The position numbers and the translations under genes were made by a program. A stretch of 52,011 bases of DNA, the filler included, from Catajapyx aquilonaris (Eukaryota): assembly GCA_000934665.2 (NCBI GenBank). It is 2 parts of 2 records of this genome, joined end to end, with 100 filler letters (N's around TTAATTAATTAA, not from the genome) between each part and the next. Parts side by side here need not be neighbours in the genome. Positions count along the whole stretch, not along the records: positions 26,065 to 52,011 come from JYFJ02005286.1; 1 more part is not named here. One strand, written 5' to 3'. Positions 16,901 through 48,564 of this stretch are shown here, piece after piece. The notes below the pieces were generated by a model, which made no database searches, was not told the DNA's origin, and saw only the letters and a program-made list of their open reading frames with translations. Position 1 is the stretch's first letter, and each line of letters begins with the position of its first letter.

Positions 16901-19900
16901 TTTTACCTGGTATTTTACCATCCGGCCCTCCACACTTGAAAGGTGCTGTGCACATTAACTACGCAACGGTGTCAAACACTAATTGCACATCCCTAAATTA
17001 GTTTTGCGAGTACTATAAGTCTACCTGGTGATTGTCCGCGAGTTTCCCTTCACTCTGTATATAAACGAAGGTCAATGAAATGTAGCGTGATGATAATACG
17101 TAGCAAACCACACTAATCCTAAACCAAGTCACTAAGCATGACACTAGCTCAGCACCAAATATGTCCATGAACTATGGGATATTGCCTCACATTACGTTTC
17201 ATTTGAGAACACCCCTTATACCAGTGGTTCTTAAACTTTTGCTGTTGCACCTCACTTGGGGAAAATCATACAACCCACACCTCCCATGGTTGCGGCCTAA
17301 ACTTTAGGTTTAGGCAGCATAAGTTTTGGCTAGTTACTAATACTCGATCGTTCTAGAATTTTGTGTAACTGACATTATGGATGAAACTATTTCTTGTGGG
17401 GCAATTCACACCTTCCCTGGAGTCTATCTACACCTCCTCTGGGGAGGTGTACCCCACAGTTTAAGAATCCCTGCCATATACTAACATTATCATCAGATAA
17501 CTCTTAAGAAACATAGCAAACTTCTTTTTTATCCCTTCACATCAGTTTTCGGACAGAGGTTGCCATGTTGGATTTGTGGGTTGTTGGGTTTTTGCGTGAG
17601 AGGATGTGCCAGAAAATATGGCATATGGGTTGTCATCTAGTCTGTGTTGCCATCTTGTGCATGATATGTGAACTTGGAGTATACCAAACTGTTTGTCATG
17701 TGTTTTACGTAGTTGTTAGGTGTTCAGGTGAATTAAGATTTTCCACCACACCCCTCATGTCGCACACGTACTCAACATTCTGACACAATTTTCGTATCAT
17801 TGCACCAGGGCATGTCTTATACGTGAAAATACGAATATGCATGTTTGTTTTCATGTGTGTAGGTTCAATGCTTCTTGGCTATGTTAAAAACTTTCTGAAC
17901 CCCCATTGTAATTATGCTTATGGACAGGATCTATTATTATTATTATTATTGTCACATGAGTGTGACACTTGCAAAATGTAGAGTAGCACCATCATTGCTG
18001 TGAATTTCTACTGTATGCTGCTGTGTTTTCTGTCTTTCTTGTTAGCCTCCAGTAGCCCTTGAAGACATTCTTCTGGAACTGGGCTTAAATTATGCCATAC
18101 TTCAAGAATTTGAAGCTGCAGAACTATTTGAATTTAACCCTCAGCAGCTTCGATACCTGGTGGATTGTGTATCAGAAAGTATGACTGAGGACACACCAGG
18201 GAAAGTTGAGAACTATCGAGTTGGTGGAACCACTCGCTTCTTTCATCACCATAGCGTATCAGATAAGAGTGTGGCTGATTGTGTGGAAGCCATGACAGGA
18301 GCTCATCTGTTGGCATGTGGGAGTGATGCTGCCCTCAATTTTCTGTCCTGGCTTGGCATGCGGGACACGGGTATTGAAGGAAGGGAGATTTCATTGTGCC
18401 ACACACCACCAACAGCTGTTGTTAACCACCACAAAATGGGAATTGACAAGGATGAGGAGATCAGGAGTTATATTTATAGGTTGGATAGACTTGAGGAAAG
18501 CATTGGCTACAAGTTCAATGATGTCAGCTTTCTACTTCAAGCTGTCACCCATCCTTCATTCTTCCAAAATCGAATTACAGACTGCTACCAGCGGCTGGAA
18601 TTTTTGGGCGATGCTGTTCTGGGTATGTATGCAAACTTATCACTCAGGATTGTGCTATTGTGATGCAAAGTAGTGATTTCAGTACATTTATGGAATGGAG
18701 TATGACTAGTATGACATCAGCTAATTATAAATGTGCATTGATCTGCTTGTGGAGGAAGAGTTGGGATTGGTTCTCTTCAGGCTAGTGTGGCTTTTGTCAA
18801 GGTTTCACATTCTCCCTTTACAAATAATCCATGAATGTTGAGGTTATGAATGATTAGATGAGTGTTTTTAAGATCCCCAAATGCTGAGATGCACAATCGT
18901 GGGTTTTGCATGAAAACTGATTGATAGACCACACTTGAAGAGGCCTATCACAGAGTATATACACTTCTACCCTATTATCTATCATAAATGATTATGTTTT
19001 GTCCAGGTGTTGTAACATCCTTTCTTTTGTTGTTACACAGATTACTTGATAACTCGTCACATTTACGAGGATGGGCCCAATCTTACCCCTGGGCAGCTGA
19101 CTGACCTTCGTTCTGCCCTAGTGAACAACATAACGTTTGCCTCCATAGCTGTGCGAGAAGGACTCCATAAATATTTGCGACATTCTTCCTCTGAACTTCA
19201 GAAAATTATAGACAGATTTGTGCTTTACCAGGAAGAGAGTGGGCATGAAGTTACAGGCCATGTAAGTACTGTTTCATGCTTTTCATGCATGAACTGAAGG
19301 TGCAAATGAAGGGTTTGCGGGTTTTCAGTTTGAGCTTGTGTGTGAAGATGAGGACATTGCTGGCGAAATAGAAGTACCAAAGGTTCTTGGAGACCTCTTT
19401 GAATCATTAGTTGGTGCCATTTTTCTTGACTGTGGAATGTCCCTCAATAACGTGTGGGAGGTCGTCAAATGTTTGATGAATAGAGAGATAACCAAGTTCA
19501 CAAGGGATGTACCCATATCACCTCTCAGAGAACTGCATGAGCGATATCCCAATGGACTGGACATAAGGTGAGAACTCAGATCCAATTGTTATAAGTCCAT
19601 CTTTATTTATATAAACCAGAAAGTTCGTTTGTATTTATGCCTGGACTACTGAAAAAGCATAAACTTGTGACACAGGTGGCTTACGTGCTCCTGATTGAGG
19701 GAAAAGCCCCGAAAAGTAACTTCAAAATAATCTGAATCTATGAAGTGGAGGACAAATGTGGTTCGAAACTGACATTTCTTTGTGCATTCTCTCTTTGGCA
19801 GGAAAGTTGATTACGAGGAGTATGAAAAAGAGGGCTTTGAGGTGGTCCGCATATCTGTCCTTCATGGAAGAAAGAACTGTGTCTTTCATGGCCTAGGAAA

Positions 19901-24089: not shown

Positions 24090-25964
24090 ACAGCTCCCGT
24101 AGGATTTTCGTGCTGAAATTGATTTTATGGTGGTTTTGGGTTTATTTGGGACCAGGCTGTCCAAAAATGGCGGGGTGCAAATTTTCGGACCCCTACACCC
24201 CCCCTGAGGGGGGGCGGGGGGCATAGTGGTCTCGGAATGTCCCCCGGCACCTATCTCCGGTAATAATGAAGGGATTTTCAGGATCTTAAGGTCGTTTCAG
24301 GGGTTTCTGATGATACCGATCCCATTTATGATTATTTGGAAGCAACCGGAAGTACTTTCACCGCGGTACGGAAAAAAATTATCAATTTCTAGTGTTGCGT
24401 AAAGTCAAAATTCAACTTCATGAACCTAGCTAGTCATGCAGTATGACTTTTTCGGGGTTTTCAAACATGGGAAAACGTTTGGTGCAGTCGTTTTGTTCAC
24501 TACACATTCTTATTCCTAGATTCAAAATTAATGTGATACATTTCAGTTATTTATTGCGCATGATACACTGGTATGCTTCACTATACTAGTCATCATCTTC
24601 TTCCTCATGGACATCGCTGATCATATTTGTACAGTCCGCGGCATAGCACTTGCAGAGCGGCGTACAATGAAGGCCATTTTTGCAGCAACTACATCTGCCG
24701 GAACAGCCTGCCTTACATGCACATTTTGTAAGTTCAATCACAGCTCGACGGGCAGGCATTGTGAGGCATTTCACAGGCATGTAGACACCTTTGTCTAACT
24801 GCCAACCATTTTCTTCAATTGCAGGAAGCTTGGGGCAGTTTGTCACATACGACTTGTCACGCATGGCAATGTAATTCGATCTTATTATATATGGGGTAGG
24901 AGTGCAGCGCGAGTCGGAGTCAGCATTTCTCCTTCCAAGATTTTTGAACGGAACAATTGCCATCTGAGTGCTGGCAAGGTTATCGGTCCTGACGAAGAGT
25001 ACACTTGGCAGACAAATCCTGTGATGGAAGGTCGCCATTCACCAACTCACTCGGCAGATAACCATTTCCAAGCTCTAGAAAGCAGTTGACAATGGAATCA
25101 TCGTCATCAAGTTTCATGTATGCACTGACCCAGGTTTTCTTCGTGATACCCACAAATTTGCCTCCCCAGTCTGCACCAGAGAAGTTGTGGAGTCCAATTA
25201 GACCTTGGCACTTGCGACGTCCAATCACTCGTACTCTCTCCAGTACATCTATCTCTCTGTATTTCGTGGCGTTTCCAGTTAGAAACTTGAGACGAGTGCG
25301 ACTTCCAAAACGTCCACAAGAGGCCAGATCGAGAAGGATTGTCAGGACATCTGTATCTGGTGACCAAACACAAACTTCCCACCTGTCACTCTCAGCTACA
25401 TAAAAACACCAATGATGCTGAAACTCTCCGACCTCCAAGAGGCATTCATCAAGCGCATTGAGTTCATGATGGTTGGCTATAGTGAGGGACGAGTGGTGTT
25501 TGACCGTTTAACCTATACCAGGAGCAATCTCTAAAAAACAAGACACGTACGAAAAGAGCAGTGACATACACAGAATTTAAATTTTAAACTTAACTCACAA
25601 ATGAAACTGACCATGTCTCTGAGAGAGCTTCTGTCCTCATCAATGACCAAAGCCAGTCTTACATCTATGTTCGCCCAAGCTTTGCTGCAGTATTTCTCGA
25701 GTAGTAAGACGTTCAAGGTGGTTGTTGTCTATGATGTCAAGATTAAGAGCAACAACTTCGAGGAAGAACATTCACATGAAGAGGCCGACACACTGATACC
25801 TTATCAAGTCCTTGCTTCTGTAACTGAGAGTGACAGGCGGGAAGTTTGTGTTTGGTCACCAGATACCGATGTCCTGACAATCCTTCTCGATCTGGCCTCT
25901 TGTGGACGTTTTGGAAGTCGCACTCGTCTCAAGTTTCTAACTGGAAACGCCACGAAATACAGAG
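24090..25964. mobile_element. Academ (AcademX-like) transposon remnant: XPG-like nuclease and Cys-rich finger, present in both orientations
   Basis: HSHEEADT, SPDTDV, HNFSGADWGGKFVGITKKTW (XPG/FEN-like motifs) and C-terminal CACKAGCSGRCSCCKNGLHCTPLCKC; frameshifted. The left boundary is approximate. Confidence 0.65.
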
Positions 25965-26064
25965 NNNNNNNNNNNNNNNNNNNNNNNNNNNNNNNNNNNN
26001 NNNNNNNNTTAATTAATTAANNNNNNNNNNNNNNNNNNNNNNNNNNNNNNNNNNNNNNNNNNNN
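25965..26064. other. Artificial assembly linker/gap
   Basis: 44 N + TTAATTAATTAA (stops in all six frames) + 44 N = exactly 100 nt. Confidence 0.95.
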
Positions 26065-29289: not shown

Positions 29290-30010
29290 TACGAGTTCCA
29301 CAAGGTCTAATGTTCCTCAATTTTTATGCATGTCCTCAAAAAAGTACTGCAAAACTAGCCGGGCTGCTGCTTTATCTCAGACCTAATCACCGAGGCAGTC
29401 CCTGCAGAAATCTTCTATTGCAATGACTGCGGCTCCATGAATACACTCGTGTCCTTCAGAGAATAATCCAGTCAAATTGTTGATGGACCTAAAATATAAT
29501 ATAATATACCAAATACACTGTTCAAACATTCGGTATTCTTCTGATTCATCGGAACGTGCCTGCTTTTGACATTGCAAAATGTTAAAAACCGAATGTTAAT
29601 AGGAAAATAAGTACTTAGTCTCGTAGAGCATGGATTTGGGACTGTTGACAGAATATCAATAATGGGTGCTTGTTTCGGCTTGTTTCATGGAAAGGAACCC
29701 TGTGGTTTGAGGCATCGTGAAATACCTCAAAAATCGCGATGTGTTACTTTCACCTACTTGTACCGCTTATTCTACACATTATTAAATTCTATCTTGTTAA
29801 ACTGTACTATTTATTCCATATGTCCATCAACTGCCAGCTGTACATTTGTAATATGCGCTGGACTGTGCGTTCGTTTACAATGTCAATGATATGTGATGTG
29901 AGGTGAAGGGCTGTTACACCTGGAGCCATGGTCAGGAGTGCATCAAAGATTGCTTCATCTTCTAGTCTCAAGAACTCACAAGACCTCACTTGGTGCCCAT
30001 GGGCAGCAGC
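29290..30010 (-). pseudogene. Degenerate LRR-like exons (probable decayed F-box/LRR gene); partial second copy at about 37000-37190
   Basis: EAIFDALLTMAPGVTALHL and SINNLTGLFSEGHECIHGAAVIAI with splice-like boundaries, stops and frameshifts. Confidence 0.35.
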
Positions 30011-33000
30011 ATGCAGTAGAACAAGGTTGATTCACACTTCAAGGTTCAATATCTGTTTAACATGCAAAATTGTCCAGTACATTGTACATCGTGCCTAAAA
30101 ACAGATTTTGTCTTTGCAGGTGTCCACCCAAAATATTAAGTGCGAATACGCCTACACCTCAAGAGTAAATTTTTGAATCAATTACGGTTCTACTCGGTTC
30201 AGATAGAATGTTTCAAGCTGCAGTTCGTGCAGAATTAATGCATTTTTTAGCACGTTGGGTTCCACTTGCCCGGAAATGTGAAGTAAGTGCAACCCCGCCG
30301 TGAATCAACTGTTCCATAATGACGCAAGACCAAATGTATCATTCAAAATAACCAATTTTAAAACGTGCCCCAATTTAACAAGTACTTCTTAAACAATAAA
30401 ATAACCTAGTGAACATTAGTCATCCAGTTAATTAGAAGATAAATGACAGACTACTTCCTCTTGGAAAAGTGGCTCTCACGCCAACATGTCAGAACTGCCA
30501 GTGTACACACTTAATTATTGCTTTCAACTGACTTTATGATCACTCCCGCCATGTTCAGAGTTGAAAATCATTCAGGTAATTAAAAAATAATGTCACGCTA
30601 TCCAATTATTAGTTAAATGAAAATGAAAGTAGTCATTACATTTTAAATAACTTCCTAAGAATTTCAGAATTTGCCTTTATTTACTCCCCGTTTGTGCAGC
30701 TTCCATATTACACTTCGGTAAGGTAAGGTATGTAGTTAAGAGTGTCCGGAGGGTCATGATGACCCAAAACCTGTCTGAATAACTGCCAGACTTCGTGGGG
30801 CTTCCCTTGGTCATCTAAAGTCTAAAGTGTTGTATTCACTGCCGTCGTCATGCCATGGAGCTCAACGAACCTCGCACAGTTAAAACAGAGTTTGTTTATC
30901 GAGTCATTCCCTCCGCTCGGATGGAAATGCAAGGGTCTGGGTGGTTCGTGTGCGGGTAAACAAACGAGAAGGACACGCGGAAAGGCAGTAGAGCCATCTG
31001 CTTGTGTCGTCCGTGCAAGAAATCCCCACGGTTGCCAAGCAAAAGCGGTTGTGAAGCAGTTTGTTGATTACAAACTCTGTAGAAAACCTGCAGCGGGGGC
31101 TTGTAGTGAAAACAACTACTTATTTTCGAACAAAGATTTCACGTGGCACGAATTAGTGGAATGGCATCAGCACGAAGACGGCAATGAAAACATGGCTTAA
31201 GAGTAGGGCCATATCACTCCTTGTGCTAAGAGTGTCCGCATGGTCATGACCCAACACTTTCTCCCTCTTCTCCAAAACCTCCCTGTATGCCCGCAAGGCT
31301 TTGTCGTAATTTCCTGGTTTGCACAGCACCCCTGCAATGTTATGCTTGGTGCTAAGAGTGTCCGGATGGTCATGACCCAACACCTTTTCCCTCTTATCCA
31401 AAACCTCCCTGCATGCCTGCAAGGCCTCGTCATACTTCCCTAGGTTCTGTAGCATGCAGACTATGTCATGATTTGTCTGAAGAGTGATTGGATGGTCGTC
31501 ACCTATCCGTTTTTCCTCCTTTACCAACACTATCCTGTATGCTGCTAAAGCCTCGTTCCACTTGCCCGCTTCACGTAGGGAGTGAGCAGAATCGAGCATC
31601 TCCTTCAATACCCTCGCCTGATCATGATGTTGTTTTGAGTAGTGTGTCCCACTTGCATCCCCAGCTCCTTCCTGCCCACCTCCACTCGACCCATGAAGAC
31701 TACCTTTGGAATCGTCCATCCCCTTTGCTCCTTCCTTGCATCCAATACCGTCATTTCCGGATGACGTGTCAGTCTCTTCATGTGTGTCCTTGTCCAGGTG
31801 AGTGCTGCCCTGTTCTTTTCCTACCCCGAGTCTTCTCCTACTAGGTTTGGGGCTGTCCAGCTTGAGTCCTGCAGTGGTCCCACTTGATGATCCTCCTCCG
31901 TGTTCACCTGTGACGATATGTGCATCCTCTGAAGACATGATCGGGACCTGAAAGAGGCAATAAGTGCACGTCTTCACTTCTTCGCGTTAGCTATAAATCT
32001 TCGTTAAAATGTAACAAATCACCTTACCGTCTGATTTATTTATCACTCGCTAATTCCATGCAAAAGTATACATCAGTGTCAGATTTTAAAATAATTCATT
32101 TCTATGACATCATGGTCTTTTCTTAAAGCTGAGATTGTGTATTATTTATTTCTGAACAGATATTAGAGAATCGTCACATACATTCCAGGTAACAACACTG
32201 TTTATTTCCAATATGGTGGGTGTGCAAATTTCTTTGGTTCTAAGGCTCCATAAAAAATCTTCATAATTCAACAAGTAAGCAAAGTGTTTTTCATGCAGTA
32301 AACTATGATTTCTATCACATAAGAACTGGATTAATGTACCATATATTTAACTTTCCATTGCAATGACTTTTATTCAGCATAAAAATTAGCTCGGTTATGT
32401 ACCATCTTTGTGTGTCGTGTAAGTCACAATTTTTTGACCTTTTTAAAAATTTTAGCTGCAGCACCAAAATTGATATTAATTACCTTCTCACTAGACAGTA
32501 GTACCCTTCTAATAATAATAATAATTTTGTGGTAATTTTTGTCTGAACATTGTTACGGCCATTTAATTTTTGTCGTGTAAGTCACCTTTCCGCTTGGATG
32601 CCACTGTCACTGTTGTTCCCCGGCTGGTAAAATGGCACTTACAGTAGTTGAATGTAAGAAAAAGCAAACGTCGTAGTTAAAGCAAGAAGGGAAGTAAGAA
32701 GCTGTCCTGGACAAGTGCATTGGAAAGGCCATTTCTGTCTAGAGTCTAGTTCGCCCAATTAAAAAACCCGCAATAAAGCCATTGTTGCCTAAATGATAGT
32801 GACATTGAGTCGTGCGTACAAGGGCCTACTACCGGGAAGGTAAAAAGGTCTGTCGTCTGTTGAAAGAAAATCGACGCCAATTGAAATTCTGATTTCACAA
32901 TCAGAATTAGCGCCTATGAATGCCTAGCTGAAATTGTTCATGTGACAAAATTATTGCTGGCCAGTTTAATTATCCAGAAGGGATCAGAAGAATATACGAA

Positions 33001-33865
33001 AGACGATGACTACCTGAGTCGACTGCCGCGCCACATCTTGATCAGTGTCTCCAGATGTTTTATTCTCATTCAGCCTGAAATGCACGCAGAGAAAGGAATT
33101 AAAATAAAGAATGTCATTCCGGCAAAAATGATTGGGATCTCCCCTTTTTTTTTCTGCACACCAACCATTGAATGGGACAATTATTAATGAATTCATGGTA
33201 CACTAGGGTATTCCCTGCCAATGTCTAACTGTTGCCACCGCTCCGTCAACTTCCGCATTGCTGCAGAACCCTGCACCACCCATGGACAACCGAAATAAAT
33301 GTGACTTTGAGATGATATGATTTATTTATTTATTTATTTATTTTTTGGCCAGAAGATATAAAAACAAAAACGTTCGAACAGCGTTAGTCGGTGTTAGTCT
33401 TTTAATCTTAGTGTGTGAATGAATTTACCTGGCTTCCGCCTGATTTATTCCATGTTTGTCCATCTCGTCTTTCAGGTACGCCCAACAGGTCATCATGCCT
33501 GTTGGTTACAGCTGCCCTGCAAAAAATGATTTAAAAAAAATCATTGATTCTGATAGAAGGTGAAAGCGCAGCTTGACATAATGTGGCACATGTACAGTAG
33601 CTGAGTAGCATATAAGGGAAAGTTTGTTTGTTTGTCCAAATGGCAACAACAGTTTTCCAAACGGGCACTACCGCTAGTAGGTCACTCTGCTCTATAAAAA
33701 CCAGACAGACGAAGGAGGCCTGGTTTCCTTGCACAAAGAGTCTCTCTGTACCTGAGTAATTAGGGTATGAACTTGGCGCACTTGAAAAAGTATACTCCAA
33801 TCGTGCTCCAATCCCTGTTTGTCTGACACAGAAATGGTTTCTTCCCGGCGAGGCCACGACATATA
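29820..33865. repeat. Tandem segmental duplication, copy 1 (copy 2 at about 37003-42788)
   Basis: Colinear high-identity blocks: 29820-30248/37003-37420, 30528-30870/37788-38130, 30867-31150/38445-38740, TPR gene, 31980-32612/40945-41630, 32941-33865/41741-42788. Confidence 0.92.
31153..31938 (-). CDS. Short TPR protein (kinesin-light-chain-type 42-aa repeats, 3 units)
   Basis: G(H/D)DH(P/A)xTL x3. ATG at 31938 follows acceptor tttcag (31948-31953); the upstream exon has an in-frame stop, so it is likely 5' UTR. Confidence 0.8.
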   Translation of the reverse strand: MSSEDAHIVTGEHGGGSSSGTTAGLKLDSPKPSRRRLGVGKEQGSTHLDKDTHEETDTSSGNDGIGCKEGAKGMDDSKGSLHGSSGGGQEGAGDASGTHYSKQHHDQARVLKEMLDSAHSLREAGKWNEALAAYRIVLVKEEKRIGDDHPITLQTNHDIVCMLQNLGKYDEALQACREVLDKREKVLGHDHPDTLSTKHNIAGVLCKPGNYDKALRAYREVLEKREKVLGHDHADTLSTRSDMALLLSHVFIAVFVLMPFH

Positions 33866-34369: not shown

Positions 34370-35702
34370 ATGGCGGGAGCCGTACCAGGCAATAACAAGG
34401 TGCGGCATAGCAAAGCTGGACAACAATCAATATATTGCTCCATAATCTATTTATTTAATTAATAATTAATTTGATTAGCTAATAATTTAATTGTCATCAA
34501 AATAGGTGTTAATTTGTGGGCCTTTTGATTTTCCAGACCTTTGATCACCTTCCGGAGGAGATGCAGGTGAAGTTGTTCTGGTACCTGCCGACCAGAGACC
34601 TGCTGGCGGCGTCTCTGGTGTGCCGCTCCTGGCGCAAGGCGGCCCTGGACCGGCGGCTGTGGAAGGAGGCCAGGCTGAGCAGCTGGAGGGTCAGCAAGTG
34701 GAGGGCCGGGCGACTGCTGGAGCAGATGCCGCTGCTGAGGAAGCTCACTCTGACCGACATGTTGGATCCGGACCAGCTCATTCGGAAGGTTGGGGACGGC
34801 CTGCCCTTCCTGGAGGTGCTGACCATCCGGCGGATGGCGCTGGCTCGCTCGGAGCCACTGGTGCACGTGGCCGAGAGGTGAGTTCGCACCTGCTCCCTAA
34901 ACCAAATGATGTAATTAACACATTTTCTGACAGGTGCACGGCACTGCGGGAGATCGTTATGGAAAACATGAGCACTCCAGCGAGCTTCCAGCATCCACTG
35001 GACATCTTCGCGGGATGTACCAAGCTGGAGAAGATCGACCTGGGCCGCTTCACCGGCCGTCGACGCCCGCTGGATCGCACCATCAAGCGGGAGTGGTCCA
35101 GGTTGTCTGAGGTCACCCTCAGCTTGGGGTCCAGGGAGACGTACTGCGCCGCAGACAAGGAGATGGAAGTGTTGGCCGACAGCCTGGGTCACCTCCGTAA
35201 GCTGCGTATCGGGGGATTCTGGCTGCCTCAAACGTACATGCTCCTAGGGCAATGCATCCGACTGGAGGAGCTGGACATCTCTGAGGCAAACTGGGACGCT
35301 CCGGCGGACGGCCTCCCCCAGGCGATGTGCAACTTGATCAGTCTCCGCCAGCTCAGCATGGGTGACACTTGGGAGCATACCGGATCCGATCTCCTTGCTT
35401 ATTTCTGCGATCCACAAGTCGTCGGACGGCTGGAGAGGTTGAGTCTCATAGAGAGCGACGCACTGACCGACACGTGCCTGGAGGCGATTGCAGACAACTG
35501 TCCGCTTCTCACGGACATCGCACTGCTCGACTGCCCAAGTATTTCCACACCTGGCGTGATCGACTTCATCACAGCATCCCAATCGCTTCGGTACATCCGG
35601 CTGCGGCACTGCAACGGCGTGGACCTCAGCGACGCTCATCCATGGATACGCGAGTGGTATCCAGACCTGCACATTCTGGAGCTGCCTGCTGGATGGAAGT
35701 AG
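34370..35702 (+). CDS. F-box/leucine-rich repeat protein (about 379 aa)
   Basis: Exons 34370-34399, 34537-34877, 34934-35702 in phase (alternative in-frame ATG at 34331); F-box FDHLPEEMQVKLFWYLPTRDLLAASLVCRSWR, followed by Cys-containing LRRs (CPLLTDIALLDCPSIS). Confidence 0.88.
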
Positions 35703-38135
35703 GTAGTGTCAAGATGTGTTCACATTTGGGTGTCGTATGATACATACAGGGGGGTTGATAGTGCAATTAACCGCAAAGTGTTCCAATATTATTGTGTGAA
35801 TCTCCAACCACAAATACTGCCATGGTTGATTGTGTTTCGCAATAATTATTTTTGAAAAGTTAACTTTTCACAACTTATGTTTAAAAAAAGGATGTGGGAT
35901 AATATTATGTAGTGCGATTGATATGTGTTGGTGATTTTAGTCGGTTCCGTCTCAGTCCATACTCTTTTTAACTAACTGCACAGGTACTTGTAAAATGACC
36001 AGGCAGCAACATTTATGTCTGGAAAAAAGGCTTTGAATTATGTTTAAAAGGGGAATAAAATATATTATTCAGAACTCTGTCGTTTGAGATATTCCGCATA
36101 ATTGAGGCATATACTGATGTAATACAGTAGAACAATTCTGTATGATACGCAACTGTATCAAAAATTATTCTGCAGCATGAGGCGAATGCGAATGTTCTTC
36201 TCCATGAGACTCGCCCTCTTTTGAGCGAAACACTCGCCTTTCATCGAGAGGATTCGCTCGGGAGGTATTGTGTGTAGCCAACTCCTAGTTCAGTTTTAGC
36301 GAAAGGCAACGGGCTTCGTTTTGGCCTTCGCTTTCCTGATGCATCTCGGCGAACTTGGCCTGCGGTTGCCTCGATATATGACCAACACTGTACTCTTCCA
36401 GCCTGAGAATGGCCTCCATCAAGAGGAACCTCAATTCGAGATGGTCTGGAAATGGGAAGTGAGTCGAGCTGTCCTTCGACTGATCGGGCCTTGAACATGT
36501 GAAAATGCAGCAGAAGTCTTGTCCGTTCGATGACTGCCTCTTACTTTTCAATAATAATTACTGGTATGCAGCAACTGAAACGTATCAACACACAGACGTT
36601 CATTGCACTGGAATGCTGCTTACTTAATTCCACTATCACAAATTCTGATGGCTGGAGTTGCATTTAATTTGTAACCTCAACCTCAGTAATACACATTGCC
36701 TCAGCAGTCATGTTGGATGGAAGGGATGATGGTAAAGGAAGGAGGGGCCGTGGAAATTATGAGGAATAATTGCAGACACACTGTATGATGTAACAGAAGT
36801 TTGATTATTCTTCATGCACATTCTGAACATGCTTTATTTATTCAAGTTACAAAGTCCATTAAAAAAATAAGCTGCGTATGTTTTATCAATATTGCTTGCC
36901 CATATGAAATAAAACAGTTGCAAGCACTATCATGTTTATCCTATGAAAGGTCAGAGAATGTTCAATCAGATATGATGTAGAGAGCAGTTTAGAGAGAAAA
37001 GATGTCCGTCAACTGCCAGCTGTACATTTGTAATATGCGCTGGACTGTTTGTTCGTTTACAATGTCAATGATATGTGCAGAGCTGTGACACCTGGAGCCA
37101 TGGTCAGGAGTGCATCAAAGATTGCTTCATCTTCTAGTCTCAAGAACTCCCACGACCTCACTTGGTGTCCATGGGCAGCAGCATGCAGTTGAACAAGGTT
37201 GATTCACATTGTGCCAATACTTTAAGGTTCAATATCTGTTTAACATGAAAAATTGTCCAGTACATCATTCCTAAAAACAGATTGTGTCTTTGCAGGTGTC
37301 CAACCATAATATTAAGTGCGATTACGCCTACACCTCAAGAGTAAGTTTTTGGATTAATTACGGTTATCGGTTCAGATAGAATGTTTCAAGCTGCAGTTCG
37401 TGCTGAATTAATGCATTTTTTTTTGCATAGATTTTTTCAAGTGCCCTTCATTTTCACATTACGTACTTCAATAGTAATGGACCAGGAAGTTTCTATTGTA
37501 TTCAGGAAATAAGGTTTGAAAGGGCATGAAGGTAACCCCACTGACATAAGAAAATTTAAAACTAATGTAAAAAAAATAATACAAAATTCAAGAGATAAAA
37601 ATATTGAAAAGAAATACAAATTTCATTTCAAACTGTCAAAAAAATTTACATTTGGGGTATTATGGCTCTTCCGCGACTGTAAACAAACACACGTGACAAA
37701 AGCGGTTAATTGGAACAGCATTTTTATGATGTATATGCACTTAATTATTGCTTTCATTAATTTATTACATTAAATGTACAGGGTAGTGACTTTATGATCA
37801 CTCCCGCCATGTTCAGAGTTGAAAATCATTCAGGTAATTAAAAAATAATGTTACGCTATCCAATTATTAGTTAAATGAAAATGAAAGTAGTTATTACATT
37901 TTAAATAACTTCCTAAGAATTTCAGAATTTGCCTTTATTTACTCCCCGTTTGTGCAGCTTCCATATTACACTTCGGTAAGGTAAGGTATGTAGTTAAGAG
38001 TGTCCGGAGGGTCATGATGACCCAAAACCTGTCTGAATAACTGCCAGACTTCGTGGGGCTTCCCTTGGTCATCTAAAGTCTAAAGTGTTGTATTCACTGC
38101 CGTCGTCGTGCCATGAAGCTCAACAAACCTCGCAC

Positions 38136-38141
<6 letters not shown>

Positions 38142-38206
<65 letters not shown>

Positions 38207-38445
38207 GTAATAAAATAATAATTCATACCCCGTTATCAGCCCTTTTCAGCTCTTTAGGGGGGAAGTTTTGTTTTGTCTGGAACTCTTTGCTTTCATTTTA
38301 CTGCGCTTTTTGGGATAGGATAGGGACGGGAGGAAGCGGCTGTGGCCTGTTAATTACAGAAACAACTCCGGAATTTTCCTGGGATCCCAGGACCTCCCAA
38401 TTAGCAGTCGGACGCCTTATTCACTATGCGAACCTGCTTCGGTCG
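38142..38445 (-). mobile_element. tRNA-derived SINE with (ATT)n tail, inserted after the duplication
   Basis: 16-bp TSD aacctcgcacagttaa at 38126-38141 and 38446-38461; the empty site is present at about 30868-30883. Confidence 0.88.
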
Positions 38446-38740
38446 AACCTCGCACAGTTAAAACAGAGTTTGTTTATCGTGTCATTCCCTCCGCTCGGAC
38501 TGGGATGCGAGGGTCTGGGTGGTTCGTATGCGGGTAAACGGCGCGAGAAGGACACACGGAAAGGCAGTACAGCCATCTGTTTGTGTCGTCCGTGAAAGAA
38601 ATCCCTGCGGTTGCCAAGCAAAAGCGGTTGCCAAGCAGCTTGTTGATTAGAAACTCTGTAGAAAACCTGCAGCAGGGGCTTGTAGTGAAAACAAGTACAT
38701 AAGTTACTTATTTTCGAACAAAGATTTCACGCTGCATGAA

Positions 38741-40903
38741 TTAGCGGCAAGACGTCAGCATGAAGACAGCAGTGAAAACAATGCTTAACAGTAGGGCCAT
38801 ATTCGTTTTTGTCTCAAGAGTGTCTGGATGGTCATGACCAAGGACTTTTTCCATCTTATCCAAAACCTCCCTGTATGCACGCAAGGCTTCCCCGTAATTT
38901 CCTTGATCCCATAGCACCCTTGCTATGTTATGCTTTGTCCCAAGAGTGTCCGGATGGTCATGACCCAACACTTTTTCGCTCTTCTCCAAAACCTCCCTGT
39001 ATGCCCGCAAGGCTTCGGCGTAATTTCCAAGTTTGCACAGCACCCATGCCATGTTATTCTTTGTCTCAAGAGTGTCCGGATGGTCAGGACCCAACACTTT
39101 TTCGCTCTTCTCCAAAACCTCCCTGTATGCCCGCAAGGCTTTGTCGTAATTTCCATGTTTGCACAGCACCCCTGCCATGTTATTCTTTGTCTCAAGAGTG
39201 TCCGGATGGTCAGGACCCAACACTTTTTCCCTCTTATTCAAAACCTCCCTGTAAGTCCACAAGGCTTCCTCGTAATTTCCTTGTTTGCACAGCACCCCTG
39301 CCATGCTATTCTTTGTGGTAAGAGTGTCCGGATGGTCATGACCCAACACTTTCCTCTTATTCAAAACCTCCCTGTATGCCCGCAAGGCTTCATCATAATT
39401 TCCTTGCTTCTGTAGCACCACTGCTATGTTATGCTTTGTCCCAAGAGTGTCCGGATGGTCATGACCCAACACTTTTTCCATATTTTCCAAAACTTCCCTG
39501 TATGCCCGCAAGGATTCATCATAATTTCCTTGGTCATCTAACACTATGGCCACGTAATTCTCTGTCCTAAGAGTGTCCGGATGGTCACGACCCAACACTT
39601 TCTCCCTCGTATCCAAAACCTCCCTGTATGCCCGCAAGGCTTCCTCGTAATTTCCTTGATTCTGTAGCTGTAGTGCCATGTTACTCTTTGTCAAAAGAGT
39701 GTCCGGATGGTCATGACCCAACACTCTTTCCCTCTGATCCAAAACCTCTCTGCAAACACGCAAGGCGTCATTGTAATTTCCCTGGTCATCTAACACCTTG
39801 GCCATGTTCATCTTTGTCCTAAGAGTGTCCGGATGGTCTTGGCCCAACACTTTTTCACTATTCTCCAAAACCTCCCTGTATATCCGCAAGGCCTCACGGT
39901 AATTACATTGATTCTGTAGCACCTTTGCCATGTTATGCTTTGTGCTAAGAGTGTCTGGGTGGTCATGACCCAACAGTTTTTCCCTCTTATCCAAAACCTC
40001 TCCGTAAACATGCAAGGCGTCATTGTAATTTCCTTTGTTATCTAACACTAGGGCCATGTTCATCTTTGTCTCAAGAGTGTCCGGATGGTCATGACCCAAC
40101 ACTTTCTCCTGCTTATCCAAAACCTCCCTGTAAATAAGCAAGGCTTCCTCGTACTTCCCTTGGTCACATAACACCCCTGCCATTTCATTCTTTGTCGAAA
40201 AAGTGTCCTGGTGGTCATGGCCCAACACTTTTTCCTGCTTATTCAAAACCTCCCTGTAAACCAGCAAGGCTTCTTCGTAATTTCCTTTACTCTGTAGCAC
40301 TTCTGCTGTGCTACGCTTTGAGCTAAGAGTGTCCGGATGGTCATGACCCAACACCTTTTCCCTCTTATCCAAAACCTCCCTGCATTCCTGCAAGGCCTCG
40401 TCGTACTTCCCTAGGTTCTGTAGCTTGCAGACTATGTCATGATTTGTCTGAAGAGTGATTGGATGGTCGTCACCTATCCGTTTTTCCTCCTTTACCAACA
40501 CTATCCTGTATGCTGCTAAAGCCTCGTTCCACTTGCCCGCTTCACGTAGGGAGTGAGCAGAATCGAGCATCTCCTTCAATACCCTCGCCTGATCATGATG
40601 TTGTTTTGAGTAGTGTGTCCCACTTGCATCCCCAGCTCCTTCCTGCCCACCTCCACTCGACCCATGAAGACTACCTTTGGAATCGTCCATCCCCTTTGTT
40701 CCTTCCTTGCATCCAATACCGTCATTTCCGGATGACGTGTCAGTCTCGTCACGTGTGTCCTTGTCCAGGTGAGTGCTGCCCTGTTCTTTTCCTACCCCGA
40801 GTCTTCTCCTTTTGGGGCTGTCCAGCTTGAGTCCTGCAGTGGCCCCACTTGATGATCCTCCTCCGTGTTCACCTGTGACGATATGCGCATCCTCTGGAGA
40901 CAT
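38741..40903 (-). CDS. Long TPR protein (14 kinesin-light-chain-type 42-aa repeats), 720 aa
   Basis: Uninterrupted ORF of 126-nt repeats, consensus KxNMAxVLxxQGNYxEALRAYREVLxKREKVLGHDHPDTLxT; Gly/Ser-rich N-terminus; hydrophobic C-terminus. Confidence 0.9.
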   Translation of the reverse strand: MSPEDAHIVTGEHGGGSSSGATAGLKLDSPKRRRLGVGKEQGSTHLDKDTRDETDTSSGNDGIGCKEGTKGMDDSKGSLHGSSGGGQEGAGDASGTHYSKQHHDQARVLKEMLDSAHSLREAGKWNEALAAYRIVLVKEEKRIGDDHPITLQTNHDIVCKLQNLGKYDEALQECREVLDKREKVLGHDHPDTLSSKRSTAEVLQSKGNYEEALLVYREVLNKQEKVLGHDHQDTFSTKNEMAGVLCDQGKYEEALLIYREVLDKQEKVLGHDHPDTLETKMNMALVLDNKGNYNDALHVYGEVLDKREKLLGHDHPDTLSTKHNMAKVLQNQCNYREALRIYREVLENSEKVLGQDHPDTLRTKMNMAKVLDDQGNYNDALRVCREVLDQRERVLGHDHPDTLLTKSNMALQLQNQGNYEEALRAYREVLDTREKVLGRDHPDTLRTENYVAIVLDDQGNYDESLRAYREVLENMEKVLGHDHPDTLGTKHNIAVVLQKQGNYDEALRAYREVLNKRKVLGHDHPDTLTTKNSMAGVLCKQGNYEEALWTYREVLNKREKVLGPDHPDTLETKNNMAGVLCKHGNYDKALRAYREVLEKSEKVLGPDHPDTLETKNNMAWVLCKLGNYAEALRAYREVLEKSEKVLGHDHPDTLGTKHNIARVLWDQGNYGEALRAYREVLDKMEKVLGHDHPDTLETKTNMALLLSIVFTAVFMLTSCR

Positions 40904-41483
40904 GATCGGGACCTGAACGAGGCAATAAGTGCACGTCTTCACTTCTTCGCATTAGCTATAAATCTTTGTTAAAATGTAACAAATCACCTTACCGTCCGAT
41001 TTATTTATCACTCGCTAATTCCATGCAAAAGTATACATCAGTGTCAGATTTTAAAATAAAGAATTTCTATGACATTATGGTCTTTTCTGAAAGCTGAGAT
41101 TGTGTATTATTTACTTTTGAACAGATATTAGAGAATCGTCACATACACTCCAGGTAACAACACTGTTTATTTCCAATATGGCGGGTGTGAAAATTTCTTT
41201 GTTCCAAGGCTCCATAAAAAATCTTCATAATTCAACAAGTAGCTAGTGTTTTTTCATACAGTAAACTGTGATTTCTATCACATAAGAACTGGATGAATGT
41301 CCTATATACAGTATTTATCTTTCAATTTCAATGACTTATTCAGCATAAAAATTAGCCAGTTTAAATACCATCTTTGTATATCGTGTAAGTCACCATTTTT
41401 TGACCTTGTTTAAAAATTTTAGCTGTAGTACAAAAATATAAAATTGATATTAATTACCTTCTCACTAGATGGTAGTACCCTTC

Positions 41484-41544
<61 letters not shown>

Positions 41545-42792
41545 TTTGAGGTAATTTTTGCCTGAACATTGTTACAGTCATTTAATTTTTGTCGTGTAAG
41601 TCATGTTTCAGCTTGGATGCCACTGTCCCTGTTTAAATTTTTAAAGTCATATAAAAAATAAGTCAATAAAATTGTTACTCTCGTTGCAAAATAATACTAA
41701 CACACTGTACTATCAGTTCTCCAAAGAGTCCATACTTCATGTAACAAAATTATTGCTGGCCAGTATAATTATCCAGAAGGGAGAAGAAAGACGATAAATA
41801 CCTGAGTCGACTGCTGCGCAACATCTTGATCAGTGTCTAAAGATGTTTAACTCTAATTCGGCCTGAAATTCACGCAGAGAAAGGAATTAAAATAAAGAAG
41901 GTCATTCAAAAATGATTGGGACTCCCAATTTTTTTTTCTGCACACTAACCATTTAATGGGACAATTATTAATGAATTCATGGTACACTAGGGTATTCCCT
42001 GCCAATATCTATGTACACTGTTGCCACCGCTCCGTCAGTTGCTGCAGAAAACAATATTCCTCTTCCCCACACCACTCATGGACAACCGAAATAAATAATG
42101 TGACTTTGAGATGATAGGATTTTTTCTTTGGCCAGAAGATATAAAAACAAACAAAAATGGTCGAATTCATCAGCGTTAGTCGGGGTTAGTCTTCTAATCT
42201 TAAATTAACATTAAGTGCAAAGTGTGCGAATGAATTACCTGGCTTCCGCCTGACTTCCATGTTTGTCCATCATGTCTTTCAGTTACGCCCACAGGTCACA
42301 TGGTTACACACTACACAGCTGCCCTGCACAAAATGATTGGGGGGGGGGAAAAAAAAATCATTGAATTCTGATAGGAGGCGGAAGCAGCTTGACATAAATG
42401 TGTCACATGTAACAGTACAGAAGGGAAAGTTTGCTTGTTGGTAATTGTCCACGCAAATGGGCCAACCGGGCACTACCGCTAGTAGGCTACTGTGCTCTAT
42501 AAATTAATATTATAATTATACATTTTAAACAATATTAGATTACAATTATTCAATGCATCGTTCTTTTATGCATACAGTGGGATTATTATTCCAACAACAT
42601 GTGCCGTGTGGACATGGACTGGAATGAATGGAGGCTGTGGTCCAGCCCCAGACGGTGTTCGAACCTTGCTGATCCTTGAGTCGCTGTACCTGAGTAATTA
42701 GGGTATGAACTTGGCGCACTTGAAAAGTACTTCCGATCCTGTCTGGTCCGACGCAGAAATGGTTTCTCCCCAGTGAGGCAACATATCTCCCG

Positions 42793-42842
42793 TATCGATA
42801 CTATCCGTTAATATCGATACTGTGAGATGCGTATCGTATCGG
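42793..42842. promoter_or_regulatory. DRE-like (TATCGATA) motif cluster
   Basis: Exact TATCGATA at 42793-42800 and 42812-42819. Confidence 0.5.
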
Positions 42843-43739
42843 TGGATTGAAACAACTCTGGAATTTACTTAATATTATTTACCGTAACAATGCAACACTG
42901 TTTAACAACCGTGTTTATAATAATTGGGTTCTTTAATATCTTTCTTCTGTAAGAATGTTCCATCACACTGCACAGCCACTGGAACGCACCCCTGTTCCTG
43001 CATGGAATAAATACCTCCATGATTAAAATAATGTGAAAATTCTAATTGCAAGAGGTTGGCTTGGACATTACTGGCTCATTTTCATTGCGGGAGCAGGTGG
43101 GAGGCTATAGCTCTTTGTACACGATGAAATCTGCTTCATTGAGATAGGTACTCAGATGTGGTATTGTTAATACAGTCACTAGAAGCGAGGCTAGAAATAG
43201 TGACCAAGAGCTCTTGAAGTGACTAGAACAATAGCCTACCTTATAATAATAATAATAATAATAATAAACAATACTGAATACTGGGACGGAATATTTTATT
43301 ATGCACTTCACCTTTCCGTATGACAAAACCATGACTCACAGCCAACATTTGGATTACATTAGAAAGACAAGCCATTTTGTCCAGGCCCAGTGCATAATAT
43401 TCCCGTTCGTCTCCTGAATAAGTACAAAATGTAGGGGGGTAAAAATAAACATGAGAGGCAAAAGACATACCAAAAATAATTTGTATTACATGCAAGCTGA
43501 GGATTCCAGATTTTCCTGACTCGTTAAATGCACATAGGTTCGGCGCCTGTGCTTCGGGAAAAGTCCCTCGCAACCGCTCGAGATGTCCATGAAGACACAT
43601 AACCTGAGCGCTGTTATCAAATAGTACGACTACAAAAACCTTTTGGATTCATGCATAACGTATGAATGCACAACGGAACATTACATTTTTGAAAATACGG
43701 CTTCAAACATACATGGAAATGAGGAAGTGAAAACTCTTT

Positions 43740-46399: not shown

Positions 46400-46857
46400 C
46401 CGGCTTGGATTTAAAATCCGGATAATATTTATAATAAATAATTAATTAATTAATTAGTATTGCAAAATAATGAGTACTCGCAATATTAATAGTTTCGTGA
46501 TTGTTTAGCTGCTTGTTCTATCACAGCGGTGGGAACGCACCGACTGTTCCTAAATTTCGAGCCAGAGGTATGGAACGCACGTTTTGTTCCATTCCATTAA
46601 TGGCGTCTCTTTTTTTTTTTGTGATTTCCGTTGTTTTAATCCTGTTGTGGTCGCCCCTAGTTCCTGCCTCGAGTCGTTTTGGGGGCACAGTAAGTCACCA
46701 AAGGAAGGGCCAAGGGTACGTCCACAGAGGTGCAGGAATTCTGACCCTCCCAAAGAAGGGAAAATGAACCATCAGCTCTCTTGAAGGTATACCTGAACAT
46801 TACAATTGAAATGAATTTTCAATCATTTCAGACCTACACCTGCAGAAAAAGGAAAAG

Positions 46858-48564
46858 ATGGACACATCAGTCAACCTTGATTACTACAGGAAGATAGTTC
46901 AGACTTACATTGAGCGACAGCAGTACTCGTCCGCATTGTTTTGGGCAGACAAAGTCGCCGCATTTTCTCAAAACGATGCAGGAGACCTGTACTGGCTGGC
47001 CAAAACCATGATGCTTAGCGGACAGTACCACCGTGCCGCTCATCTGATCAAATCCCGTAAGCTACAGAAGGTCGACTTGAAATGCAGGCATTTGGCAGCC
47101 AAATGCATGTTGGAGGTGAAGGACTACGGAGAAGCACTTGACCTGTTGGATGTCTCGGAGGACATGAGCGTGAAGAGTAGAAGCGAGGTCTCCGATATTC
47201 CGGAAGAAACAGAGGATCCTAACATCACGAGCGCATTGTTATGCTTGAAGGGGCATGTGTACGAGGCCATGTCTAATCGCAGCCTAGCCGCAGACTGCTT
47301 CCGTGAGGCACTGCAGTATGACGTTAATTGTTTCGAAGCCTTTGAAGCGCTTGTGCAGCATCAAATGCTGACATTAGACGAAGAGAAGGAATTACTGCGC
47401 ACTCTACCGAAAAGTTCAAAGAGTACAGCTTTAGCCCGGTTTTTGTACGAAGACAAACTGAAGAAGTATGGAAAGCCGGCCAAAACGGTTATTCCAACAT
47501 CATTCGACATGCTCAAGTACAACTCGGATTTTCTTGTGAACCAAGCGGAGCGTCACTATTACAACTGCGAATACGACGAGAGCTGCAGGATCACACGCAA
47601 GGTTCTCAAGAAAGATCCGTTTCATAGCTCATGTCTTCCACTACATGTCAGCTGCCTCGTGGAGAAGAAGCAATCCAATGAGTTGTTCCAGTTGGCTCAT
47701 CAGTTGGTGGACTTGTATCCAGCGACTGCGTTTGCATGGTTCGCTGTTGGATGTTATTACTTGCTCGTAGGAAAGCACGATGCGGCTCGGATACATCTTA
47801 GCAAATCGACCGCGATTGACAAACTATTCGGACCTGCCTGGCTAGCATATGGACACTCATTTGCCGTTGAGAACGAACATGATCAAGCCATGGCAGCGTA
47901 TTTCAAAGCATCGCACCTCATGCAGGGATGCCACCTGCCGCTTCTGTACATCGGTCTGGAATGCGGATTGACAAACAACCTGAAATTGGCAGAGAAATTC
48001 TTCCAACAAGCTTTGGAGATTGCGCCTGAGGATCCGTTTGTTCTGCACGAAATGGGTGTGATTGCGTATCAAAATGAAGATTACGAAGATGCGGAACAAC
48101 ACTTCCAGCAAGCCTTGGCACAGTTGAAGTCGGTTCGTCAGATGACTTTAACTGAGAAGTGGGAGCCGCTGCTGAACAACTTAGGAAATGTCTCTCGTAA
48201 GCTCCGGAAGTATGAAGATGCCCTTCAGTATCACGAACAAGCTCTTGTCCTCGTTCCGCTGTCACCGTCGACATATTCATCCATCGGATTTGCGCATGCT
48301 ATGATGGGCAATCTGGAAGCTGCAGTTGACGCTTTCCACAAAGCTCTAGGCCTGAAAAGGAACGACATCTTCAGCACAACCATGCTAAATTCAGTCATTG
48401 AGCAATTAACGGAGGATACGCCACCATTTACCGGATCAGCTGACGACACCCCAGACACATCCGGGTTGCAGCACTCCGGCAGCACCAGCCGAGACGCTTC
48501 TAAGACCAGCGACTCCTCACCTGATGTATGTCAACTGAATCTGAAGAGCGTGAGTAGAGATTGA
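46858..48564 (+). CDS. CDC16: Anaphase-promoting complex subunit 6 / CDC16 homolog
   Basis: 568-aa single ORF: QQYSSALFWADKV, GQYHRAAHL, AERHYYNC, WFAVGCYY, FGPAWLAYGHSFAVENEHDQAMAAY, GCHLPLLYIGLE, EKWEPLLNNLG; a terminal intron at 48526-48612 is possible. Confidence 0.96.
   Translation: MDTSVNLDYYRKIVQTYIERQQYSSALFWADKVAAFSQNDAGDLYWLAKTMMLSGQYHRAAHLIKSRKLQKVDLKCRHLAAKCMLEVKDYGEALDLLDVSEDMSVKSRSEVSDIPEETEDPNITSALLCLKGHVYEAMSNRSLAADCFREALQYDVNCFEAFEALVQHQMLTLDEEKELLRTLPKSSKSTALARFLYEDKLKKYGKPAKTVIPTSFDMLKYNSDFLVNQAERHYYNCEYDESCRITRKVLKKDPFHSSCLPLHVSCLVEKKQSNELFQLAHQLVDLYPATAFAWFAVGCYYLLVGKHDAARIHLSKSTAIDKLFGPAWLAYGHSFAVENEHDQAMAAYFKASHLMQGCHLPLLYIGLECGLTNNLKLAEKFFQQALEIAPEDPFVLHEMGVIAYQNEDYEDAEQHFQQALAQLKSVRQMTLTEKWEPLLNNLGNVSRKLRKYEDALQYHEQALVLVPLSPSTYSSIGFAHAMMGNLEAAVDAFHKALGLKRNDIFSTTMLNSVIEQLTEDTPPFTGSADDTPDTSGLQHSGSTSRDASKTSDSSPDVCQLNLKSVSRD

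Follow-up and report, generated by a model that had tools for sequence, protein, structure and literature searches.

The stretch of DNA analysed here (the window) comprises 52,011 nucleotides (nt) of the Catajapyx aquilonaris genome (assembly GCA_000934665.2), in which two parts of two records are joined end to end with 100 filler letters between them, and positions 26,065 to 52,011 come from JYFJ02005286.1. Its minus strand carries a gene, here called gene A, whose product consists largely of tetratricopeptide repeats (TPRs), together with a tandem paralogue, paralogue B. An initial annotation had described gene A as an array of near-identical repeats with a few hypervariable positions and had proposed it as a candidate diversifying recognition receptor. 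Judged from its sequence and from a structural model, the case is evenly balanced that gene A encodes a lineage-restricted arthropod TPR binding module without a NOD (nucleotide-binding switch) domain, the groove of which is probably diversifying.

The coordinates first assigned to the gene, 38741..40903, coincide exactly with an open reading frame (ORF) that starts at the first ATG (40903) of a stop-to-stop frame spanning 38741..40951 on the minus strand and encodes 720 amino acids (aa). As far as the sequence goes, there is apparently one coding exon. The gene is made up as follows:

38741..40903, minus strand: coding sequence of gene A, 720 codons plus a TAA stop at 38741-38743, apparently a single coding exon.
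40580..40903, minus strand: N-terminal region (aa 1-108), rich in Gly, Ser and Asp, with a basic PKRRRL patch.
40454..40579, minus strand: unit U1, a degenerate capping TPR with 49-55% nt identity to the other units.
38819..40453, minus strand: units U2-U14, thirteen TPR_12/TPR_10 (42PR) units of 126 nt each except U10.
39323-39445, minus strand: unit U10, 123 nt, without one Glu.
38744..38818, minus strand: last 25 codons, a helix-A-like start and then a hydrophobic segment (aa 701-719, 38747-38803).

Tandem Repeats Finder detected a period of 126 over 38808-40424 (12.9 copies, 81% matches, 0% indels, score 1764). When unit boundaries were set by anchoring on the HPDT motif, 14 units were obtained, 13 of them 42 residues long and one (U10) 41, which bears out the fourteen 126-nt repeats originally reported, with the 123 nt of U10 as the exception. 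The protein matched Pfam TPR_12 in 12 stretches (E 4.1e-161, 524 bits against a cut-off of 30.1) and TPR_10 in 13 (E 1.5e-160, 517.7 bits against 27.5). Among U2-U14, nt identity was 72-96% and aa identity 55-88% (mean 0.674), with values of at least 0.85 in 2 of 78 pairs; 13 of the 42 positions were invariant and nine more differed in a single unit only. The scaffold had been called almost fixed, and its conservation stands, but at 67% aa identity and 72-96% nt identity "near-identical" was too strong a term. The array is a member of the TPR_12/TPR_10 class (42PR, kinesin-light-chain-type), a naming that the available part of PMC5642895 credits to Marold et al. 2015. Sequence matches in the PDB included the kinesin light chains KLC1 and KLC2 (3nf1, 3edt, 6swu and 7ai4, E 1e-32 to 2e-40) and the Podospora 42PR protein (4y6c/4y6w, E ~1e-21), and fold matches were to long TPR superhelices and KLC1/2, with template modelling (TM) scores of 0.55-0.69 on the target. 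The top PDB sequence matches were designer pentatricopeptide repeat (PPR) proteins (E 6e-49). Units 11-13 (38819-39322) share a Cys-Lys-x-Gly ... Glu-Ala-Leu pattern with the PPR consensus, and we judged this to be a chance likeness because unit length, Pfam matches and kinesin light chain matches all indicate TPRs.

An AlphaFold2 model of the protein (mean predicted local distance difference test score, pLDDT, 83.6; predicted TM score 0.77) places the 14 units in a continuous TPR superhelix in which helices of about 16 residues alternate with helices of about 18, and pLDDT mostly exceeds 90 across the units. Units were numbered with the Gly of the G-N-Y turn as TPR position 15; helix A then runs from position -2 to 13 and helix B from 17 to 34 in the model, and variable sites were mapped using this secondary structure and the published TPR numbering. 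The three example columns of the initial annotation (after DTL, after Ala and after VL) were reproduced letter for letter and correspond to positions 2, 9 and 12-13. Variability was not restricted to "a few" positions, however, as 12 of the 42 (2, 5, 6, 9, 12, 13, 14, 18, 22, 23, 29 and 31) had an entropy of at least 1.5 bits. We fixed a groove set a priori from the literature, namely helix-A positions 2, 5, 6, 9, 12 and 13, which contact ligands in HOP TPR domains according to the excerpted text of PMC1261162. In the corresponding extract from Magliery and Regan, the positions most variable in TPRs generally are 2, 5, 9, 12, 13, 33 and 34. Mean entropy was 2.18 bits in the groove six and 0.62 bits in the remaining 36 positions (Mann-Whitney p 1.6e-4). 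Variability is therefore highest where it had been proposed to be, at the helix-A groove residues, but it is not confined to them: the top 12 positions comprise six on helix A, one in the turn (position 14) and five on helix B, and the groove six and helix B account for 37% and 39% of the summed entropy, respectively.

Such a profile could also arise in an ordinary structural or adaptor TPR protein, in which the variable positions are exposed, least constrained and drifting neutrally, without diversifying selection and without a role in recognition. We consider this explanation possible but doubtful, and a number of results count in its favor and weigh against a diversifying groove. Variation at these positions is generic to repeats of this class. 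We compared gene A with 79 bacterial and fungal arrays, taken from the 120 best database matches and each with at least 6 cleanly spaced 42-residue units. The same positions were the most variable in these arrays (in the order 9, 13, 2, 12, 31), and per-position variability correlated with that of gene A (Spearman 0.61, p 1.8e-5). The internal identity of gene A (0.67) was mid-range (median 0.62, maximum 0.86), and internal conservation was at least equal to that of gene A in 37% of the arrays, as was the concentration of variability in the groove in 13%, in a comparison set that is biased to consensus-like arrays because it was chosen by likeness to gene A. As for the fungal pattern invoked in the initial annotation, the best ungapped 100-residue self-window of the protein had 83 identities (offset 42, start residue 518), short of the 85 that correspond to the criterion for high internal conservation (HIC) in fungi, which the available portion of Dyrka et al. 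2014 (PMC4986451) gives as >85% identity between repeats of the same protein across 100 residues or more. Helix B, where the ratio of replacement to silent rates (dN/dS, or omega) is close to 1, holds five of the 12 most variable positions. Pooled Nei-Gojobori (NG86) estimates over unit pairs gave an omega of 0.64 for the whole unit and 0.29 for the positions outside a variable set defined post hoc, which itself reached 1.10. Likewise, in parsimony counts made on a FastTree tree of the units, the groove six accumulated 50 replacements at 15.4 sites against 7 silent changes at 2.6 sites, an omega of 1.23 relative to their own silent changes (p 0.39). Finally, the selection tests rest on six codons with a saturated tree (about 15 changes per codon), and they assume a single tree for units that have recombined; because recombination mosaics are known to inflate such tests, the groove result is weakened, and inter-unit recombination can yield false signals of positive selection.

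Other results speak against neutral drift. With the same parsimony counts, replacements in the groove six exceeded the array-wide silent rate by a ratio of 2.2 (p 1.6e-4) and the local silent changes of codons 1-14 (12 on 8.7 sites) by a ratio of 2.37 (binomial p 0.003), whereas the non-groove codons of helix A within that set of codons changed at 0.77 of the silent rate. Codon-model likelihood (GY+F1X4), with a likelihood ratio test (LRT) against an omega of 1, gave the following:

Groove six, tree from the other 36 codons: omega 3.2, LRT 4.31, p 0.038.
Groove six, tree from 30 core codons: omega 3.85, LRT 5.73, p 0.017.
Groove six, partition model: LRT 4.52, p 0.034.
Helix-B variable codons: omega 1.08, p 0.87.
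Further variable codon set: omega 1.82, p 0.38.
36 non-groove codons: omega 0.61.
30 core codons: omega 0.43.

The site-wise dN/dS check that had been suggested for this gene was thus divided in its outcome: all three likelihood set-ups favored groove diversification (omega 3.2-3.85, p 0.017-0.038), and the test of the groove codons against their own silent changes did not. The scaffold residues are under purifying selection, with a dN/dS of 0.4-0.6, and the 720-codon frame is intact although the units differ at about 20% of bases. The variation on helix B looks neutral; this agrees with the drift explanation for those sites, and it also means that equally variable codons lack the signal found in the groove. 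There is nominal support for a turnover of the groove six at two to four times the rate of silent sites.

The array has also been grown and remodelled by unit duplication and inter-unit exchange. For most units, the nearest neighbor differs among the thirds of the unit, and all four gametes are present in 149 of 325 informative site pairs. This mosaicism, together with a tandem paralogue that has 3 units where gene A has 14, upholds the repeat recombination put forward in the initial annotation. The duplicated region contains these features:

31153-31938, minus strand: paralogue B, 261 aa, 3 units, the same N-terminus and a hydrophobic tail; TPR_12 E 1.9e-27.
37002-42729: segment A of a tandem segmental duplication found by blastn; its partner is 29820-33792.
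38142-38443: insertion in segment A relative to the B segment, just 3' of gene A; a (TAA)n tract plus a high-copy repeat.

Paralogue B lies 7.5 kb from gene A. Its first unit, B1, is 100% identical to U1 and B2 is 98% identical to U2; B3 is a mosaic, with thirds closest to U11 (86%), U12 (100%) and U13 (93%). Identity between the duplicated segments is itself a mosaic of 77.8-98.6%. These features bear on the possibility that the two copies are duplicates that are young, are decaying or have never been expressed, with frames open through recency and not through function. On that account, copy B has lost 11 units (3 units against 14), the very uneven identity and the repeat insertions of the duplicated segment would be signs of decay, and the 192 codons shared by the two copies, with 2 silent and 7 replacement changes and one 6-nt indel, would have an omega of 0.99 for want of constraint. 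The last of these also counts against our reading of gene A, since relaxed constraint, in the N-terminal part at least, would account for it. Nevertheless, nine differences are too few to separate an omega of 1 from 0.3, the indel is in frame, the stop is common to both copies, and the tail is hydrophobic in both despite many replacements. In addition, a frame of 720 codons has been kept in an array with units about 20% divergent in bases, 13 invariant positions and a scaffold omega of 0.4-0.6. We regard decay as very unlikely.

A very high-copy dispersed repeat at about 38300-38450, not found in the paralogous segment, has a summed contig depth of ~2.3-2.9e5 at 38300-38400, against 17-38 for exact single-copy contigs. 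Its loose-end consensus letters recall a tRNA-derived short interspersed nuclear element (SINE); a tRNA scan with ARAGORN and an Rfam scan of the window found no match. Two long (TAA)n microsatellites, at 38139-38222 (28 copies) and 41484-41544 (20 copies), flank gene A on both sides. In the sea urchin Sp185/333 family, microsatellites beside repeat-variable immune genes have reportedly been proposed as promoting rearrangement.

Contigs from DNA runs of a single sample, placed at 90% likeness, point to units beyond the two assembled copies. The DNA runs found to contain the stretch all derive from this sample, and no RNA run was listed with them. Some contigs carried 7 and 11 other letters per 128 bases at places where there is little or no difference between A and B, which suggests at least one additional copy, or a divergent allele, in the same sample. 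Moreover, contigs of single-copy depth in 3 of 3 runs joined position 40032 to 39147 with five letters between. The join is exactly in register (U5 offset 43 to U12 offset 49), and a chimeric U5-like/U12-like unit would therefore be present somewhere in that genome, either as an allele or as a paralogue, on the evidence of joints with only about 30 bases to each side. Over the array, contig depth summed to 26-1480, against 17-38 for exact single-copy contigs; summed depth is not a copy number, and its hint that there are many similar units elsewhere in the genome is a lead only. One run from another study (X5) had next to no cover over the array, and we draw no conclusion from it.

Outside the repeats, the protein has two further regions. 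Residues 1-98 are predicted to be disordered (pLDDT <50), and the N-terminus appears to be an orphan as well: a search with aa 1-125 against 1.84 billion representatives returned a single low-complexity match (E 5.5e-4, 16 stretches), and no protein in a database of 5.8 billion shares the N-terminal region of paralogue B. At the other end, aa 701-719 have the highest 19-residue Kyte-Doolittle mean in the protein (1.95; 2.07 for the tail of paralogue B), and the model predicts a single 27-residue helix at 693-719 with block means of pLDDT of 95 (701-710) and 87 (711-720). We rejected intronic read-through as the source of this tail. There is no GT-type donor at the 3' end common to both copies, and the sole GT candidate in gene A, within the codons immediately ahead of the hydrophobic segment, is a poor donor that reads CT in paralogue B; because of this, and because the same TAA ends both copies, we read the tail as the true C-terminus. 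In tail-anchored membrane proteins, the only transmembrane segment is a hydrophobic one at the very C-terminus. By this pattern, the hydrophobic helix may be a candidate membrane tail anchor, with the array facing the cytosol, although an objection here is that hydropathy and a predicted helix are all that this assignment draws upon.

On its predicted sequence, the product of gene A is not an NLR, as no nucleotide-binding switch domain is found in the protein. Among the best 25 of 41 Pfam matches there were only TPR-type or helical-repeat families, with no NACHT, NB-ARC or effector family. In the flanks (35750-38735 and 40960-43730), none of the 59 ORFs scanned, out of 96 listed, matched any Pfam family; these flanks cover about 3 kb on each side, and exons further away would be beyond reach without transcripts. 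Within the protein and these flanking ORFs, the earlier description of a stand-alone array with no NACHT or NB-ARC domain holds.

The closest database relatives of gene A raise the question of its origin. The 120 best of 6733 matches were 32-51% identical to the protein, and those among the 120 that bear an organism name, as most of those listed do not, were all fungal, bacterial or archaeal. Many of these 120 carry NB-ARC, TIR, CHAT, NACHT or kinase domains, and in a consensus of 33 matches the repeats are preceded by P-loop and LPLA motifs that gene A lacks. Paralogue B had 9 matches among 5.8 billion proteins, the best of them 41% identical over the TPR half and none over the N-terminus. 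Together with an uninterrupted coding sequence and an N-terminus without relatives, these observations would fit a microbial origin, in which the sensor arm of an NB-ARC-TPR receptor, fungal or bacterial, was transferred horizontally into the arthropod lineage without its NOD and then duplicated, and may have been domesticated or merely tolerated. We consider this unlikely. A ranking of scores is not a phylogeny, because consensus-like repeats score high against any long consensus-like array, and even the best matches are only 40-51% identical. The lack of animal relatives is weak evidence, because the database apparently does not include the proteome of the species itself; among the look-alikes in a protein atlas, which are otherwise generic TPR clusters, there is one "kinesin light chain family" cluster from a rotifer, a eukaryote, although this is a lead only. 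The G+C content at third codon positions of gene A (0.53) is inside the range of the neighboring arthropod genes (0.41-0.84), and the gene sits between arthropod genes on one contig in which local repeats have been inserted. Its relative synonymous codon usage correlation of 0.28 is uninformative, given that this is a repeat gene. Neither horizontal origin nor decay contradicts the anatomy of gene A described above.

The neighbors of the TPR copies are ordinary arthropod genes, including a cyclin-like gene, an F-box gene, Dicer exons, CDC16 and ankyrin repeats:

Last ORF ending at 43740: cyclin-like gene, the next gene upstream of gene A.
34513-35702, plus strand: F-box gene, between the two TPR paralogues; F-box-like E 1.9e-14.
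46810-48564, plus strand: CDC16/APC6 homologue, an uninterrupted 584-codon frame.
897-1550, 15893-16483 and 18046-18663, plus strand: Dicer-like exons (a dimerisation domain and two RNase III pieces), spanning about 18 kb.
12705-14246, plus strand: reverse-transcriptase ORF, RVT_1 E 6e-21.
24980-25507, minus strand, and 25565-26020, plus strand: two ORFs with a near-identical peptide stretch of about 40 residues in common, neither with a Pfam match.

The CDC16 protein is 60-62% identical to insect proteins, its best matches, which marks the host as an arthropod and confirms the animal host of the initial annotation. CDC16 is a housekeeping gene that normally has multiple exons, and this intronless copy could be a retrogene. 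The F-box gene is followed by a 385-codon frame without a Pfam match and lies outside the blastn-aligned blocks of the duplicated segments. The reverse-transcriptase ORF stands amid the Dicer-like exons and is presumably a retroelement within an intron. Two 44-base runs of N (25965-26008 and 26021-26064) adjoin the opposite-strand ORF pair, which is an inverted duplication at an assembly gap and either a mobile element or an assembly artefact.

If gene A is a diversifying binding module, it would bind peptides or proteins through a ligand groove that undergoes diversification, and its product would be a binder, an adaptor or a decoy instead of an NLR-type switch and could plausibly take part in non-self recognition or genetic conflict. 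Unit duplication and exchange have reshaped the array, as the mosaic units and the 14 and 3 units of the two paralogues show, and the C-terminal helix may tether the protein to a membrane with its array in the cytosol. A more far-reaching version, which we think quite unlikely, would make this a small, fast-evolving, membrane-tethered and NOD-less TPR family of this arthropod lineage with a groove diversified by selection and unit exchange, one that recognizes or decoys non-self or selfish-element proteins without a switch and that may descend from the horizontally acquired sensor arm of a microbial NLR. Should gene A be expressed and its groove be truly diversifying, it would follow that a sensor arm can work, or be reused, without a switch, and invertebrates would have in this gene a tractable candidate for a new class of intracellular binders. 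Otherwise, it is one more lineage-specific TPR gene, and its pattern is the generic variability profile of the fold.

Among the closest known systems are kinesin light chains, with 42-residue units as in gene A. Their N-terminal region, a coiled coil, binds the heavy chain, and their repeat domain contains a non-TPR insert. According to the available part of PMC5642895, their TPRs number six, and helix A lines the groove that binds cargo peptides. Gene A differs in that its 14 units are uninterrupted, its N-terminus is unrelated and its tail is hydrophobic, and the uninterrupted units together with a disordered N-terminus that has no relatives rule out a kinesin light chain orthologue. The vertebrate IFITs are direct binders without a NOD, whose genes are clustered in tandem and have nearly all of their coding sequence in a single exon. 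Like gene A, they are stand-alone TPR proteins, but their repeats are divergent and not internally conserved, and they bind RNA; the likeness is one of functional analogy only and not of membership. According to an excerpt of PMC12570964, IFIT proteins act in innate immunity.

A resemblance in pattern had been claimed to the NLR-like non-self receptors of fungi. In the sections of Dyrka et al. 2014 at hand (PMC4986451), the HIC arrays of fungal NB-ARC/NACHT NLRs show signs of positive selection on the concave face, their unit number varies from 2 to >14 among Podospora isolates, and a survey found metazoan repeats with high internal conservation to be rare (0.8%). As far as those sections describe them, gene A shares with the fungal arrays 42-residue TPR_10-type units on a conserved scaffold, a labile unit number and exchange between units, and its groove carries a nominal signal of positive selection. 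It differs in having no NOD and no N-terminal effector domain, in an internal identity of 83% against 85%, in its arthropod host, and in its disordered orphan N-terminus and hydrophobic tail, and its unit number can be compared between paralogues only. The claimed fungal pattern thus stands for groove variability and unit exchange, but not for the degree of internal conservation (83/100 against 85). The NB-ARC-TPR candidate receptors of the brown alga Ectocarpus, a non-fungal eukaryote, whose fast-evolving TPR repeats are proposed as recognition modules in the excerpted text of PMC3341825, combine an NB-ARC domain with exon shuffling, whereas the array of gene A is one uninterrupted exon with no NB-ARC. 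Our literature searches found no hypervariable TPR family from arthropods or crustaceans. The near-identical TPR arrays of bacterial NLR-like and CHAT-protease proteins belong to the same Pfam families and vary at the same positions as gene A; each comes joined to an NB-ARC, NACHT, TIR, CHAT or kinase domain, and the array of gene A is fused to none. More generally, a fixed scaffold with a diversifying binding face recurs in recognition repertoires, including fungal and bacterial NLRs, the variable lymphocyte receptors of lampreys and plant NLRs. To our knowledge, the TPR version of such arrays has so far been described joined to a NOD switch, in fungi, bacteria and algae. The repeat class of gene A is itself known; what is new is its animal host and its architecture.

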